Virus record (IMG/VR): IMGVR_UViG_3300021197_001769
Strand: one strand, 5' to 3'
DNA from: a virus
DNA: 64,000 bases
Positions within the stretch are counted from its first letter, which is position 1. Each line of letters starts with the position of its first letter. A program made the position numbers and the translations under genes. Below, one piece after another: positions 20,238-46,722 of the stretch. The notes under the pieces were generated by a model, which saw only the letters and a list, made by a program, of their open reading frames with translations, ran no database searches and was not told the DNA's origin.

Positions 20238-20383
20238 ATTATCCTCGTTAGCTGTTTTATTCGCAGGAGCGACCTGAAAAAAATAAAGAGGCAATCTTTC
20301 GACTGCCTCAATATTTATAGTAAGTTTTTCGAAAATGTTTAGCTACTTAACCAATCATTTTCTTCATCTGAATAAGGCCACAC

Positions 20384-20661: not shown

Positions 20662-21072
20662 TTAGTTAATATTAATTACTTTAGGTTTTCTTTCTTCTGG
20701 AAGTTTAACTTCAAGATTAATGACAAGAATTCCATTAGTAATATCAGCACCTGTAACTTCGGTGTACTCAGACAGCCTATAAGATTTAGTAAACTTACGA
20801 GCTGAAATGCCCTTGTGGACATACATTTCCTGTGGTCTTCGACGTTCACGATTTCCTGTAATAGTTAATACGTGCTCTTTTACCTCAATCTTAATATCTT
20901 CTTTGCTAAATCCCGCTATTGCTAGCTCAACTAAGTGCTCTGTGGCGCTTAACTTCACTACATTGTGCGGTGGATATGTATCCTTAGCGTGTAAGCCGAT
21001 GTTATCGATCTCGTTTAAGAGATGGTCGAAACCTAAAAAAGCGTTCCTTGGGAACATAAAAGTACCAGTCAT
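20662..21072 (-). CDS. small heat-shock protein Hsp20 (IbpA-like)
   Basis: FLGFD, YPPHNVVK, ELAIAGF, HKGISARKF, A...NGIL; start chosen after GGAGG. Confidence 0.95.
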   Translation of the reverse strand: MTGTFMFPRNAFLGFDHLLNEIDNIGLHAKDTYPPHNVVKLSATEHLVELAIAGFSKEDIKIEVKEHVLTITGNRERRRPQEMYVHKGISARKFTKSYRLSEYTEVTGADITNGILVINLEVKLPEERKPKVININ

Positions 21073-21076
21073 ATTT

Positions 21077-21098
21077 GCCTCCATTTGTTATGCAAGAC
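21077..21098 (-). promoter_or_regulatory. ROSE-like RNA thermometer hairpin occluding the hsp20 SD
   Basis: GUCUU-G-CAU/AUG-GAGGC pairing with a bulged G opposite the GGAGG SD. Confidence 0.55.
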
Positions 21099-21132: not shown

Positions 21133-21140
21133 TATTTATA
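21133..21140 (-). promoter_or_regulatory. T4-type late promoter TATAAATA (hsp20)
   Basis: exact TATAAATA about 60 nt upstream of the start. Confidence 0.7.
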
Positions 21141-21159: not shown

Positions 21160-21405
21160 TTATGCAGTTTTAGGAATATTTTTCGAATCGTTTTTAATTT
21201 TTTCTTCTAAATGACCAATCATAATTCTTCTCATATATTCAGCTCTTGTGAGATCTGTAAATGAGTATTCTCTTATATCATCATTAGTAATACGTATTGA
21301 AAAATTATAAAATGCTCCAGATTTTTTTATACTAGATGCACTTCCTGCGGCTATCTTTTTTGTATTAACCAAGGTTCCAAATTTAGTTTCGATTATATTT
21401 GTCAT
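21160..21405 (-). CDS. small hypothetical protein under glutamine-riboswitch control
   Basis: ATG at 21405 after AAAGGAAG; the ORF-track extension runs into the riboswitch. Confidence 0.7.
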   Translation of the reverse strand: MTNIIETKFGTLVNTKKIAAGSASSIKKSGAFYNFSIRITNDDIREYSFTDLTRAEYMRRIMIGHLEEKIKNDSKNIPKTA

Positions 21406-21430
21406 AACACTTCTTCCTTTTACAGTTAAA

Positions 21431-21482
21431 GTGCGTTGCTTCAGCAAAATAGCTTACTTCCGGGTATGGAAACCCCAACGAT
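21431..21482 (-). promoter_or_regulatory. glutamine riboswitch (glnA motif, class I)
   Basis: minus strand AUCGUUG-GGGU..ACCC-GGAAGUA-AGC..GCU-GAAG-CAACGC: P1 CGUUG/CAACG, E-loop AGUA/GAA, three-way junction. Confidence 0.88.
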
Positions 21483-21486
21483 AGTT

Positions 21487-21494
21487 TATTTATA
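21487..21494 (-). promoter_or_regulatory. T4-type late promoter driving the riboswitch leader
   Basis: exact TATAAATA ending 4 nt before the aptamer. Confidence 0.75.
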
Positions 21495-23178
21495 ATGTTA
21501 AGTTAACGTTCTTAGCCCAAGTTTTAAAGAAAGCTGAAGCGTAGAAAGTCTTTACTCCATCTGCTCTTTGCCAATCAACTAAGTTATCTATTTTATTATC
21601 TAATGGTTCTCTTATACGACTAACCATCTTATCTCTAAACTTCTGTTGAGTCTTTCTCCATTCATTATCTGGAATAGACCATCCTGTTTTAGGTTTGTTA
21701 ATAATATATTCAGGTAGAATACCTTTTAAACTATCTCTAGCTAAAAACTTATATTCACCATTAGCGTACTTATTAGGTTCTAAATTTTCCATTTTAATTA
21801 ATGAAGGTATACCCATCACGTACTTATAGAACTTTTGATTGAGTAAAGGAAATCTTCCTTCCATTCCAAAATATGAACCAAACTTATCATTTCTAGTTAA
21901 AAAGTCTTCTGATACTCTTGTAAGCATTTCTACAAACAAACAGTTGTTAAGGTGATCATCACCAAAAACGTTACCAGGAAACCAGCTTTCCATATAGTTG
22001 ACATAAGCTACTTCTCCCATTTCTAAACTTTGATCTAATACATTCATTCGTTTTTTAGGTTTCCACGCAATAGCTCTATAATGGTCCCTAAATGGATTAT
22101 CTGTATTATCATATCTACCATGAGTTATATAACCTGTATACATCTCATCTCCACCATCTCCAGAATAAGTAACAATAGTTCCTGCTTCTTTTAGAGCTCT
22201 ATTAATTGTAAAATAAGATGGAGTAGATTTATTGAATACAGGTTGCTCTAAAGCTAACATAGCTTCTTCTAAATCAGCATAATAATTTTCTGGAGTAATA
22301 TTAATATTACAATGATTAAAATTATATTCTTCAGCCATTTTTTGAGCCATATCAGCATCGTCATTAAAGTTAGCTGATTGAGGCTCATATCTTGATGTGA
22401 ATGTATTCTTTTCTTCTAGATAGTGAGCAACAGAAGTACTATCAAGACCACCAGAAAGAAAAACACCTCGCTGTCTAACACCAATATAACTTTTTCTAAT
22501 TGCTTCCTCAAGTTCATCTCTAAACTGTTCTTTACTAACATCTAAATCATTTATAAAATTATAATCATCCCATACATTAGTTGTTACTCTTTTTCTTGTT
22601 AAACAATCATATTCAATTATCTGCCCTGGAGTTAATTTAAAAGTTTCATCAATTAAAGTTAAGTAACCAGGAACATATCCAAATTGTCTATAAAGAGCAA
22701 AAGCAAAAAGATTTAATTTAGTTTCTTTTCTTTCTAATGCATGCATAGATGATGAAAATATCATACCTTTGTTAGTATTTCTATAAAATAAAGGTTTAAC
22801 TCCAAAATGGTCTCTTGCTATAATTAACTTACCATCTTTATAGAAAGCTAAAGCCCACATACCTTCTAATTTACTTAAAAACTTAGGACCTTCCTCATAT
22901 AATCCTTTAGCTACAGCATGAGTATCTATTTCATACTCAGGATAAAACTCTTTATGATTATAGATAGCACCATTGAATATTAGTGCGCTATCTTTATAAA
23001 GATAAGGTTGTAAAGATTGACCTATATCTCCATAGATAGCTAATAAGTTATGTCCGAAAGATACATGATGATTAGTCCAAGTAGAAGAACCATCAGGCCC
23101 TCTTCTCTTTGTATGCTCCATCATTCTATAAATTCTAGCTAACTGATTACCTTCAGTTATACCATTAATTCCGCACAT
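21490..23178 (-). CDS. asnB: asparagine synthase-like glutamine-dependent amidotransferase
   Basis: MCGING, RRGPDG, FNGAIYN, ARD.FGVKPL, LSGGLDS, SGDGGDE, E.RFPLL, PKTG. Confidence 0.92.
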   Translation of the reverse strand: MCGINGITEGNQLARIYRMMEHTKRRGPDGSSTWTNHHVSFGHNLLAIYGDIGQSLQPYLYKDSALIFNGAIYNHKEFYPEYEIDTHAVAKGLYEEGPKFLSKLEGMWALAFYKDGKLIIARDHFGVKPLFYRNTNKGMIFSSSMHALERKETKLNLFAFALYRQFGYVPGYLTLIDETFKLTPGQIIEYDCLTRKRVTTNVWDDYNFINDLDVSKEQFRDELEEAIRKSYIGVRQRGVFLSGGLDSTSVAHYLEEKNTFTSRYEPQSANFNDDADMAQKMAEEYNFNHCNINITPENYYADLEEAMLALEQPVFNKSTPSYFTINRALKEAGTIVTYSGDGGDEMYTGYITHGRYDNTDNPFRDHYRAIAWKPKKRMNVLDQSLEMGEVAYVNYMESWFPGNVFGDDHLNNCLFVEMLTRVSEDFLTRNDKFGSYFGMEGRFPLLNQKFYKYVMGIPSLIKMENLEPNKYANGEYKFLARDSLKGILPEYIINKPKTGWSIPDNEWRKTQQKFRDKMVSRIREPLDNKIDNLVDWQRADGVKTFYASAFFKTWAKNVNLTL

Positions 23179-24632
23179 TAAGAGCAAACCTTTACATTAT
23201 ATTTCTTTTCAAATCTTTTTGCATCTCTTTTTGTATTTACCATAGGTTCACCTCTAATATTAAGAGAGGTATTCAATAGCATAGGACATCCAGTTTCTTT
23301 ATACCATTCTTCTAATAGCATTCTAAAACCTGGACTATCATCTTTACCTACAGTTTGAACTCTACTAGAACCATCTACATGTATTATAGCTGGAAACTCA
23401 TCTGGTTTTTTACAATTACCTACAAATTGCATGAAAGGTGAGTCATCAGTTACAATATCAAAATATTCATTAACATGTTCTTTGAGAATAGCTGGAGCAA
23501 ATGGTCTAAACATTTGTCTTCTTTTAATATTGTTGACCGTATCTTTAATCTCATTACCTCTTGGGTCTGCTAGTAAGCTTCTATGTCCTAATGCTCTAGG
23601 ACCAAATTCAGCTCTTCCTGATGCTACACCTACAATCTTATTTTTCTTAAGTTCGTCTATAATATCATATACAGGGTATATTCCAGGAATCTTAGTTCCA
23701 AGATAAGGACCAGGCCATTTACAAAAGTCATCATAATGTGCTAAAGCAGCTCCTAATGAAGAACCACAATCTCCAGGATTAGGCATAATCCATACATGAT
23801 CAAAATAATCATATAATATTCTATTTGCTACACAGTTAAGAGCGACTCCACCCATAAAAACTACATTAGTTCTACCAGTAAGTATATTTGCTTTATGCAT
23901 TACTTCTGAAATAAACTCTTCTGTAACTACTTGAATACTACATGCTAGATCTTCTTTTTCAGCTAGAGGTAAATAATTACCAATACCTTGATGCACATTC
24001 ATTCTTAATTTTAGTTTTTTAATATCTACCAAATCTTCTTTTATTTGTTTAGTAAAAGTAGGCATGCCCCAACCAGCCATACCCATTGTAATATACTCTT
24101 CATCTAATGGTTTAAGTCCGACTCTCTTAGTAAATGCTGAATACAATAAACCTAAACTATGAGGTAATTTTCTACTCCATACTTTTTTAATATTGTGACC
24201 ATCCGCATCCCAAATTGTAATAGTTTCAAATTCACCAATAGCATCTATAACTACAATAGCAGCATCTCTAAATGGACTTGAATAATAACCTGCTGTTGCA
24301 TGAGTATAATGATGGTCAAATAATTGAACAGGAGCATCAATACCGAATGATTGCATATATGTTTCTGGATGAGTATCGAAAGGAGAGTATCTCCATTCAC
24401 CAGTTAATAGCTTTCTAATATTCTTTTTCCAAGGTTTTTCATACCATGCTACAGCATCAGGTTTACCAAACTTTAAGGCTTCCTTAATGATCTTATCATT
24501 AAGATGCTTATCATGCTTTATACCAGAATATCTTTCAGAGTGAGCTGCAAAAACAATCTCACCGTTTTTAATTACGCTTAGTCCAGCGTCATGGAAGTAT
24601 GCAGATACTCCCCAAATAATTTTATTTTCCAT
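23178..24632 (-). CDS. carbamoyltransferase (NodU/CmcH/TobZ family)
   Basis: HDAG, ERYS..KHD, HHYTHA, SLGLLYS, GGVALNC, GRAEFGPRALG.RS, RPFAP, LLNTSLN. Confidence 0.93.
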   Translation of the reverse strand: MENKIIWGVSAYFHDAGLSVIKNGEIVFAAHSERYSGIKHDKHLNDKIIKEALKFGKPDAVAWYEKPWKKNIRKLLTGEWRYSPFDTHPETYMQSFGIDAPVQLFDHHYTHATAGYYSSPFRDAAIVVIDAIGEFETITIWDADGHNIKKVWSRKLPHSLGLLYSAFTKRVGLKPLDEEYITMGMAGWGMPTFTKQIKEDLVDIKKLKLRMNVHQGIGNYLPLAEKEDLACSIQVVTEEFISEVMHKANILTGRTNVVFMGGVALNCVANRILYDYFDHVWIMPNPGDCGSSLGAALAHYDDFCKWPGPYLGTKIPGIYPVYDIIDELKKNKIVGVASGRAEFGPRALGHRSLLADPRGNEIKDTVNNIKRRQMFRPFAPAILKEHVNEYFDIVTDDSPFMQFVGNCKKPDEFPAIIHVDGSSRVQTVGKDDSPGFRMLLEEWYKETGCPMLLNTSLNIRGEPMVNTKRDAKRFEKKYNVKVCS

Positions 24633-25525: not shown

Positions 25526-25545
25526 AATATACTCCTAAAAAATTA

Positions 25546-25850
25546 ATGGCACTTCTGTTGCCAGGTAGTACCCACCCCGCTAATCGCTACTAAGTCGACT
25601 AGGCTGAAGCTGCAAGAGCTTCCTGCACAAGTGAGACACGCTCGACTTTTACAGGTAAGATTGAAGCAAAAGTAGTGCTTTTTTTAGCATTTACTTTAAT
25701 GTACGTATCTCTAAGAAAACTTTTCAACATACGTCGATCCTATTTCGCCCCCATAAGAAACACTCAACTATGCAAGTGTTTATGGTGGAGGCGCCGGGTA
25801 CCGCCCCCGGGTCCGTCCTATCTATTGCGAGATCCATCATCAAGCAACGT
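25546..25850 (-). ncRNA. ssrA: circularly permuted two-piece tmRNA, alphaproteobacterial type
   Basis: acceptor piece ends CCGGG-GGCGGUA-CCCGG-CGCCUCC-ACCA (CCA at 25785-25783); coding piece starts GGGGGCGAAAUAGGAUCGAC at 25752; G3:U pair; AACAGAA near the 3' end; tag ORF 25688-25599; outer ends approximate. Confidence 0.95.
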
Positions 25851-25856
25851 ACTAAA

Positions 25857-25864
25857 TATTTATA
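25857..25864 (-). promoter_or_regulatory. T4-type late promoter for tmRNA
   Basis: exact TATAAATA immediately upstream of the acceptor piece. Confidence 0.75.
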
Positions 25865-26217
25865 TGGGAAAAGCGAAAAAAGTTTTTAGAGTTTATGTAA
25901 CTTATTTTCCAGATGGAAGATATTACATAGGTTTCTCTCAAAAACCAGAAAAACAATATGTTAATTATTATGGTTCCTCTAAAGAAGTTTTAGAATACGA
26001 TAAAAGTTTACTTATAAAAGATACAATAGTAGTCTACACTGAAAAGAACAAAGCAAAGATGCAAGAGTTTCTTTTACAATGGTGGCATAGACATGATCCT
26101 AAGTGTATCAATGATATGTTGAATATAAGATTAAGATCTAAGTATCTTGATGGTTTTGTTCCGGTACATTGGAGTCCTCGTGACATTCGTCAGTTAGAAT
26201 TAGATTTCCATAATTAG
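25864..26217 (+). CDS. GIY-YIG-like endonuclease domain protein
   Basis: VYVTYFPDGRYYIGFS, YYGSS, QE, N.M; start trimmed to MGKAKK. Confidence 0.6.
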   Translation: MGKAKKVFRVYVTYFPDGRYYIGFSQKPEKQYVNYYGSSKEVLEYDKSLLIKDTIVVYTEKNKAKMQEFLLQWWHRHDPKCINDMLNIRLRSKYLDGFVPVHWSPRDIRQLELDFHN

Positions 26218-45998: not shown

Positions 45999-46722
45999 TT
46001 AAATACTCCTTCGCTCTATCATCAAATACATTTGATCTATTTTTTATACTTCCTTTAAGATGTACTATGTAACCATCTTTATATCTTTTATCCATTTGAT
46101 TCCAATACTGATGCATCGGAACTATGTTAACACCTGACTCAACTGCAGCTATGTTAATAGCTGATTGATCATCTGACCAGAGACCTCTAGCTGTTAACCA
46201 TTCTTCTATTTGTTCATGTGATAAAAAAGGTTTCATCTTAAGTATAGTGTTTCTATCTAATAGTAATACTCCAGAATTAAAATAATTTTGTCTATATTTT
46301 TCTATTAAATGGCTTTTATTAATTCTTGATAAGTGATCAGGTTCTTTACCTTCATCAAATATTTTACCTAATCTACTTACAGCATGAAAACCTTCATCTG
46401 GGTAATAATCAATAATATTAGGACTGTCTGGGTAATAATATACATCTGTATCTAAATACAATATTCTATCATATTCAAGGTACTTATCATCTCTAAAAAT
46501 TTTAAATATTTCAAAGCAAGGAGATCTATGTTTAGTTTCTCTCTTACCTTCTAAAGTATAATCCCAACCAAATCTCTGTGCGGCTGCTCCACTAAAAATA
46601 ACTGACTTAGATTTAACATCGTCATTTCTTTCTTTTAATACGGATGCTGTAGCTGTAGTTCTATCTTCAATATCTGTATACTGATCTTGGAATATATCAA
46701 TTTGAATTAAAAGAGTTTTCAA
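45976..46722 (-). CDS. glycosyltransferase, GT8-like
   Basis: RILYLDTD, YFNSGVLL, DQSAIN, WN, VH. Confidence 0.8.
   Translation of the reverse strand: MKTLLIQIDIFQDQYTDIEDRTTATASVLKERNDDVKSKSVIFSGAAAQRFGWDYTLEGKRETKHRSPCFEIFKIFRDDKYLEYDRILYLDTDVYYYPDSPNIIDYYPDEGFHAVSRLGKIFDEGKEPDHLSRINKSHLIEKYRQNYFNSGVLLLDRNTILKMKPFLSHEQIEEWLTARGLWSDDQSAINIAAVESGVNIVPMHQYWNQMDKRYKDGYIVHLKGSIKNRSNVFDDRAKEYLNAVSSSN

Follow-up and report, generated by a model that had tools for sequence, protein, structure and literature searches.

The window analyzed here is a 64,000-nucleotide stretch of DNA from the virus record IMGVR_UViG_3300021197_001769. On its minus strand lies a gene for an 81-aa protein, referred to here as p81, behind a leader that is composed of the box TATAAATA, the nucleotides AACUAU, a glutamine riboswitch aptamer, and ACUUUAACUGUAAAAGGAAGAAGUGUU, after which comes the AUG of p81 (Table 1). 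A gene for AsnB, a glutamine-dependent asparagine synthetase encoded by a 565-aa ORF, lies directly upstream, and the surroundings also hold genes for a carbamoyltransferase and Hsp20 and an alpha-type two-piece tmRNA. One tRNA was found in the window by an Rfam 15 scan.

Table 1. Positions of the p81 cassette, its leader elements and the surrounding genes in the window.
Feature	Position	Strand	Basis or detail
Hsp20	20662-21084		Pfam
p81, 81-aa protein	21160-21405	minus	AUG 21405-21403; homologs conserved
Platform hairpin (predicted)	21408-21433	minus	CACUUU (21433-21428) with GAAGUG (21413-21408); encloses the Shine-Dalgarno sequence
Shine-Dalgarno sequence AAGGAAG	21413-21419	minus	Sequence; 7 nt ahead of AUG; purine-rich Shine-Dalgarno sequence at this place in 16/16 leaders
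Inner platform pairing (predicted)	C21425-G21417, U21424-A21418	minus	Reaches the Shine-Dalgarno sequence
Glutamine riboswitch aptamer (RF01739)	21430-21482	minus	Rfam covariance model and stem covariation
P1	21480-21476 with 21438-21434	minus	CGUUG with CAACG
P2	21474-21472 with 21465-21463	minus	GGU with ACC; 6-nt loop
Junction CGGAAGUA	21462-21455	minus	
P3	21454-21452 with 21445-21443 (span 21454-21443)	minus	AGC with GCU
GAAG	21442-21439	minus	
Conserved C directly 3' of P1 (equivalent of the "linchpin" C60)	21433	minus	C in 16/16 leaders
T4-type late-promoter-like box TATAAATA	21487-21494	minus	Sequence; overlaps the AsnB stop TAA (21492-21490)
AsnB, glutamine-dependent asparagine synthetase	21490-23187	minus	Pfam Asn_synthase 2.7e-48, GATase_7 8.4e-21
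Carbamoyltransferase	23178-24632		Pfam
Alpha-type two-piece tmRNA	25542-25892	minus	Rfam 15, 119 bits

A cmscan of the entire window against Rfam 15 matched the leader element to the glutamine riboswitch family RF01739 along the full model (positions 1-53 of 53), at 42.9 bits, where the gathering score is 35, and with an E value of 5.1e-06. This score is well beyond chance and every conserved junction base is present. A glutamine riboswitch at this place had been proposed in a sequence-only reading, which named the Rfam glnA model as a check; all of the elements that it listed are indeed found on the minus strand, where the aptamer reads CGUUG-G-GGU(UUCCAU)ACC-CGGAAGUA-AGC(UAUUUU)GCU-GAAG-CAACG-C. 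Aptamers of RF01739 typically, but not by definition, stand in the 5' leaders of genes for nitrogen metabolism or DUF4278 proteins, and here the aptamer precedes p81, which matches no Pfam family. This new gene context leaves the RNA family assignment intact, and the element is a glnA-class aptamer.

Relatives of the leader were gathered in two ways that both left the stems free, a protein-based scan of viral contigs and a metagenome scan with a pattern that fixed only CGGAAGUA and the N-terminus of p81. Including the window, this gave 24 loci from viral and metagenome contigs, which reduce to 16 distinct leaders. In an in-register alignment of these 16 leaders, both-sided changes occur in 10 of the 14 pairs of P1, P2, and P3, and 90.8% of stem cells are standard pairs, compared to 30-48% once the 3' partners are slid. 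The covariation score of the stems was reached in 0 of 500 shuffles. No leader among the 16 departs from the junction bases CGGAAGUA, GAAG, and AACGC, which include the G22/G23 ligand clamp and the linchpin C60; the roles of these bases were mapped onto the aptamer after published work (PMC11477058; for C60 also PMC6212724). This pattern of substitution indicates that the stems of the aptamer are under selection. The junction-proximal P1 pair is a compensated G-C in the window and C-G in the 13 other distinct leaders. Four p81 leaders (L219, L220, L225, and L233) carry a second aptamer directly upstream; tandem copies are known among glnA RNAs and have been tied to sharper switching (PMC2864571).

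The box TATAAATA occurs four times in the window, where 16.6 copies would be expected on both strands, and is thus depleted. All four copies are on the coding strand and none falls wholly within an ORF, in a window of which 94% is coding. The coding strand has 18 copies of the motif NATAAATA, and the opposite strand has none. Since the box ahead of the aptamer ends 6 nt before P1, a T4-type late transcript would begin 1-2 nt ahead of P1, at approximately 21481, and the box stands, as in T4-type late promoters, approximately 6-7 nt upstream of the predicted transcript start and ahead of genes. The spacing is kept among relatives, as one of TATAAATA, AATAAATA, GATAAATA, or CTAAATA ends exactly 6 nt ahead of P1 in most single-aptamer leaders. 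These data agree with the late-promoter box that had been read from the sequence, and the promoter motif suggests that p81 would be expressed late in infection. A PHROGs scan of 10 ORFs of the window, which is part of a genome, found no gp55 or gp33 late factor among them. The three other boxes, all on the minus strand, lie ahead of UvsX (20312-20319), Hsp20 (21133-21140), and the tmRNA (25857-25864). The last of these lies within the 5'-terminal part of the Rfam alpha_tmRNA match, and for this reason it is probably the promoter of the tmRNA and not part of the RNA.

Between the aptamer and the start codon of p81, we found a candidate expression platform in the form of a two-tier hairpin. Its first base is the invariant C21433, so that the hairpin directly abuts P1, and its outer tier is the helix that had been noticed in the sequence before (GCACUU, 21434-21429, with AAGUGU, 21412-21407). 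All 16 leaders are predicted to form this helix, whose fifth pair is U-A, U.G, or C-G. Within the window, thermodynamic support for the platform is only moderate: RNAfold gives the hairpin -5.0 kcal/mol (z -2.0 compared to shuffles) and -1.2 kcal/mol when C21433 and the next A are withheld, a cost of approximately 3.8 kcal/mol, while the accessibility of the Shine-Dalgarno sequence is 0.64 and 0.62 in crude proxies of the bound and unbound states, its bases being just partly paired.

We surveyed the platform across 96 distinct leaders. These were the matches listed when viral contigs were scanned with a pattern, together with the leaders of the p81 loci, of Melnitz, and of two bacterial genomes. 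We counted helices of at least 5 bp that start on the linchpin C and end no more than 8 nt from the start codon. Such a helix is present in 49 of these 96 phage or host glutamine leaders; shuffled leaders gave 3.4 +/- 1.9 and at most 10. The first pair is C-G in all 49 helices. Covariation is seen at the third pair (C-G in 41, U-A in 4, A-U in 1, and U.G in 3), the fourth (C-G in 25, U-A in 21, and U.G in 3), and the fifth (U.G in 28, U-A in 16, and C-G in 5), and a Shine-Dalgarno-like tetramer lies inside the 3' arm of 45 of the 49. Among the matches listed, the helix stands ahead of more than 15 unrelated small ORF families. The comparison across leaders indicates that the platform helix enclosing the Shine-Dalgarno sequence, as the sequence-only reading had drawn it, is real.

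Prior studies report that, on glutamine binding, C60 becomes the Watson-Crick partner of junction G23 and that the short helix attached to P1 melts (PMC11477058; Klähn 2018, PMC6212724). In the gifB leader, this P1-attached helix is postulated to occlude the ribosome-binding site, giving an ON switch (Klähn 2018, PMC6212724). After this model, we propose that the phage transcript would start at the T4-type TATAAATA promoter, carry a type-1 glutamine riboswitch at its 5' end, and encode p81. In the absence of glutamine, CACUUU, made up of the C 3' of P1 and the 4-5 nt that follow, would pair with GAAGUG between the Shine-Dalgarno sequence and the AUG, and the inner CU/AG pairing would touch the Shine-Dalgarno sequence, which would leave the ribosome site inside a hairpin stacked on P1. 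The aptamer is predicted to bind glutamine. Once it is bound, the junction G of CGGAAGUA would take C21433 as its partner, and the hairpin, now without its closing pairs, would allow more translation of p81. The simplest reading is that p81 would be made only when the glutamine pool of the host is high. By analogy with gifB, we consider a translational ON switch to be the probable mode of action, held with some reserve because the thermodynamic support in the window is moderate and the accessibility of the Shine-Dalgarno sequence hardly moves; the ON direction itself would follow from one tested cyanobacterial case.

We weighed whether the leader might not gate translation at all. The aptamer would then fold and serve mainly as a structured 5' end that protects a late mRNA, and p81 would be made constitutively late in infection. 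The weak hairpin of the window, the largely accessible Shine-Dalgarno sequence in the thermodynamic model, and the flipped junction-proximal P1 pair are in keeping with this. It is nevertheless rather unlikely, given that the ligand-contacting junction bases are all kept, that the stems covary under selection, that the linchpin-anchored helix occurs far above chance ahead of many unrelated ORFs, and that tandem aptamers, the arrangement tied to sharper switching (PMC2864571), precede p81 in four relatives.

The opposite polarity would have glutamine stabilize P1 and the hairpin stacked on it, with less translation of p81 at high glutamine. Polarity has been measured in few glutamine riboswitches (PMC6212724), and a platform hairpin that directly abuts P1 could stack on it coaxially. 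We regard an OFF switch as unlikely, however, since the bound structure pairs the hairpin-closing C with the junction G instead (PMC11477058; PMC6212724), the hairpin is poorer by the 3.8 kcal/mol given above when that C is withheld, and the response to a nitrogen upshift was positive in both tested cyanobacterial examples.

Riboswitches control sequence that lies 3' of themselves. It is accordingly very improbable that the element serves the genes upstream of it, either as a 3'-UTR element of asnB, given that it begins 8 nt past the AsnB stop codon and that AsnB consumes glutamine, or as a tmRNA controller, as PMC9004378 takes the Melnitz copy to be for ssrA, because AsnB is nearby at none of the 23 other cassette loci, the promoter box stands between AsnB and the aptamer, the tmRNA of the window is 4 kb upstream with two genes between, and the aptamer of Melnitz itself comes after the tmRNA, with the same platform and a conserved 32-codon ORF behind it. 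A functional unit of AsnB and the cassette was rejected on the same count of loci. The sequence-only reading had set the riboswitch among nitrogen enzymes; AsnB and the carbamoyltransferase are confirmed by Pfam as its neighbors, but the link to AsnB is incidental, being absent from the other cassette contigs. Its alphaproteobacterial-type tmRNA is borne out by the Rfam match (Table 1).

Searches of GenBank phages by megablast and blastn, with the region and with the leader, found no related locus, and tblastn found no p81 among them even at E below 1. By UvsX, the closest GenBank relative is Phage C48C1 of the Kyanoviridae, at 58% identity, which has neither the aptamer nor p81.

The protein-coding gene of 81 codons that had been read downstream of the aptamer is well supported by its homologs. 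The start Met of p81 (ATG at 21405) is also the start of the cellular homologs; the ORF list holds a TTG-extended 95-aa version. Some public metagenome gene calls (P0001, P0003, and P0008) lengthen p81 by 14-27 residues (..ERTLTVKGRSV-MTNII..), and these extensions are the translated riboswitch platform, an annotation artefact. Homologs of p81 share 28 invariant columns, and the family is narrow and strongly conserved since it forms 286 clusters at 90% identity but just 42 representatives at 50% identity (an exhaustive HMMER search for the 42). In the AlphaFold2 model, which is confident (pLDDT 89.8), residues 15-22 form a helix, residues 32-49 a beta-hairpin, and residues 52-75 a long C-terminal helix; the model also has short strands.

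We found no match of p81 in Pfam down to E 0.1 or in NCBIfam, nothing below E 0.69 in a PDB profile search, and nothing below E 0.08 with Foldseek on the PDB (best, Sac7d at 0.08). An exhaustive structural search gave a best PDB Z of 5.0, under the usual background, with no AP2 or Tn916-integrase-type domain in the top 50. In an Atlas shape search, p81's own family came first, followed by DNA-binding domains of the integrase/AP2 type at TM 0.56-0.62 over approximately 56 residues; we treat this resemblance of the predicted model as a lead only and claim no fold family. Single matches to PHROGs (phrog_14733, E 0.0024) and PADLOC (HORMA, E 0.011) were set aside as uninformative. Residues 19-56 gave weak multi-stretch HMMER matches (E 1e-6 to 3e-4) to repeats of giant SdrD B-like/prealbumin-like surface proteins, which were rejected and probably reflect compositional similarity of the beta-hairpin. 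DUF4278, the signature of the glutamine synthetase (GS)-inactivating factors IF7/IF17, is absent from p81, which has no Pfam match and is predicted to combine a beta-sheet with a helix. Judged by its conservation, p81 is a real gene without known family or fold among the libraries searched.

Copies of p81 that are 80-91% identical are present in thirty-four genomes, nearly all of them single-cell genomes or MAGs of the SAR116 cluster and one of them Candidatus Levibacter, of the order Puniceispirillales. The leaders of these cellular copies are AT-rich with a TTGACA-type promoter, and no aptamer was found in the cellular p81 loci by Rfam searches, whether at the gathering score or with E allowed up to 10. 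On one contig in some SAR116-type genomes, two diverged copies of p81 lie a few kb apart (L074/L088 and L084/L093), and on contig L001 p81 lies within a stretch of many tiny orphan ORFs. We found glutamine riboswitches elsewhere in two of five such genomes, Candidatus Levibacter and a Ca. Marisalimonas MAG, as tandem RF01739 aptamers of 56-61 bits that precede a 38-aa basic peptide, MTYRPYQWNKF... (L234:1358-1474(-) and L235:1366-1482(-)). The same peptide family is also found behind aptamers in the viral contigs L102, L114, L129, and L143. Our data indicate that glutamine riboswitches are native to Puniceispirillales-like heterotrophic alphaproteobacteria. The host lineage thus has the RNA and p81 apart, and phages combined them: p81 was taken by phages from SAR116-type alphaproteobacteria and set behind a ready-made module of aptamer and platform.

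Among full-length viral p81 loci, six of 56 carry the aptamer, and the remaining fifty are from a different group of phages. In this abundant aptamer-free group (L012-L061), p81 starts directly behind a 221-aa ORF of phrog_12985, near virion genes; PHROGs searches of the p81 neighbor genes in other phages gave no functional hint. The cassette is present in at least three different phage backbones. Its neighbors differ between the window and the other cassette contigs, which lack AsnB and in some of which UvsX is 28% or Hsp20 40% identical to that of the window. Because the cassette contigs share no neighbors with the window, the aptamer, platform, and p81 travel among phages as one unit. One carrier, IMGVR_UViG_3300021964_000012 (L009/L217), is a contig of 328,292 bp with terminal repeats, a CheckV completeness of 100%, and a single aptamer, that of p81. 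There the cassette is a lone plus-strand gene among minus-strand genes, behind a CTAAATA box, a moron-like layout on a contig of jumbo-phage size.

As possible roles of p81, the sequence-only reading had suggested a GS modulator or a lysis-timing factor. Another reading is that p81 might be a nitrogen-status effector of SAR116-type heterotrophs, functionally equivalent, as a structured protein, to the GS-inactivating factors of cyanobacteria or to other small binders of nitrogen regulators, which phages captured behind the riboswitch and which would hit host nitrogen assimilation only when glutamine is plentiful. We offer this as a speculation of small probability.

A core of the aptamer is present in more than 120 viral contigs (L097-L216), which is a lower bound. 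Among the matches listed from these contigs, the first ORF behind the aptamer is nearly always tiny, at 25-85 aa, and many unrelated families are represented (YRG-repeat/DUF4278-like, MNRFDHL..NG.GTSGY, MTLW.RYCR, MTKYQ.., and others). Roughly half of the viral aptamer contigs listed have a Shine-Dalgarno helix anchored on the linchpin, and another group of them has a different leader, CACCAAUACC...AAAGUAAAGGAGCA.

One such small ORF lies in the genome of Melnitz (MZ577097.1), where the aptamer scores 52.8 bits and is positioned after the tmRNA, not before it. At 46398-46567 (L239:2854-3023), the aptamer is followed by GCACUUAACCUUAAUGGGGAGAGUGUUAUG and the 32-codon ORF MTLYQQWCYLKAQKEYRRRQKILMYFRIRLKG, which starts MTLYQQWCYLKAQ.... 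This ORF, one of a peptide family that is also found behind other phage aptamers, is absent from the annotation of the record, which instead has a 33-aa CDS on the opposite strand. Since the aptamer comes after the tmRNA and is followed by the platform and this ORF, the published riboswitch control of the Melnitz tmRNA (ssrA) is doubtful.

A structure of the glutamine riboswitch aptamer has reportedly been described by Ren et al. in 2015. The sequence-only reading had held the class to be known mainly from cyanobacteria, which is too narrow: glutamine riboswitches have been published in T4-like cyanophages (PMC9964418), in Methylophilales phage Melnitz, Pelagibacter phage Mosig, and pelagimyophage MAVGs (Buchholz et al. 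2022, PMC9004378), and in SAR86 MAGs (PMC12379486), and the two Puniceispirillales-like genomes described here extend this range. The leader of gifB (IF17) in Synechocystis sp. PCC 6803 (PMC6212724) shares with the window the Rfam family, the three-stem aptamer, the junction bases, and the pairing of nucleotides from the linchpin C onward with the ribosome-binding region. It acts on translation and is ON at high glutamine, and the window is likened to it by analogy. The two differ in that p81 is not a DUF4278/IF17 protein and matches no known family, that gifB is NtcA-regulated whereas the promoter of the window is a phage TATAAATA box, and that the window belongs to a phage whose host is probably an alphaproteobacterium.

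Melnitz, Mosig, and the MAVGs are, like the phage of the window, T4-like marine myophages (Kyanoviridae-type) with an alpha-type two-piece tmRNA and one aptamer per genome. The platform sequence of Melnitz, GCACUUAACCUUAAUGGGGAGAGUGUUAUG, is almost identical to that of the window. In contrast to the Melnitz aptamer, which lies right after the tmRNA and ahead of the 32-codon ORF, that of the window precedes p81 at a distance of 4 kb from the tmRNA. The glnA RNAs of cyanophages and marine metagenomes likewise lie ahead of small ORFs and are in some cases tandem (Weinberg et al. 2010, PMC2864571; PMC9964418), as are the aptamers of the four p81 leaders above. Most of the ORFs behind them encode YRG-repeat (DUF4278-like) or basic peptides of 25-65 aa, whereas p81 is an 81-aa domain, folded in the AlphaFold2 model, with close cellular homologs.

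The riboswitch itself, a canonical glutamine riboswitch in a marine T4-like myophage, adds limited novelty because glutamine riboswitches are already published for cyanophages, Melnitz, and pelagimyophages. What is new is the cargo, an orphan protein that is structured and host-derived, together with comparative evidence for a platform anchored on the linchpin. The targets of riboswitches in phages of marine heterotrophs have so far been unclear or probably misassigned, and this locus presents a clean unit of promoter box, aptamer, helix anchored on the linchpin C, and gene. The recurrence of the platform in phages and Puniceispirillales-like bacteria lends comparative support to the translational ON model, which had been just postulated for gifB. 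These data define a portable "glutamine-gated" module to which phages attach varied cargo. As the largest and best conserved cargo among the matches listed, with near-identical copies in hosts, p81 is therefore a practical entry point to what phages do when host glutamine is high.
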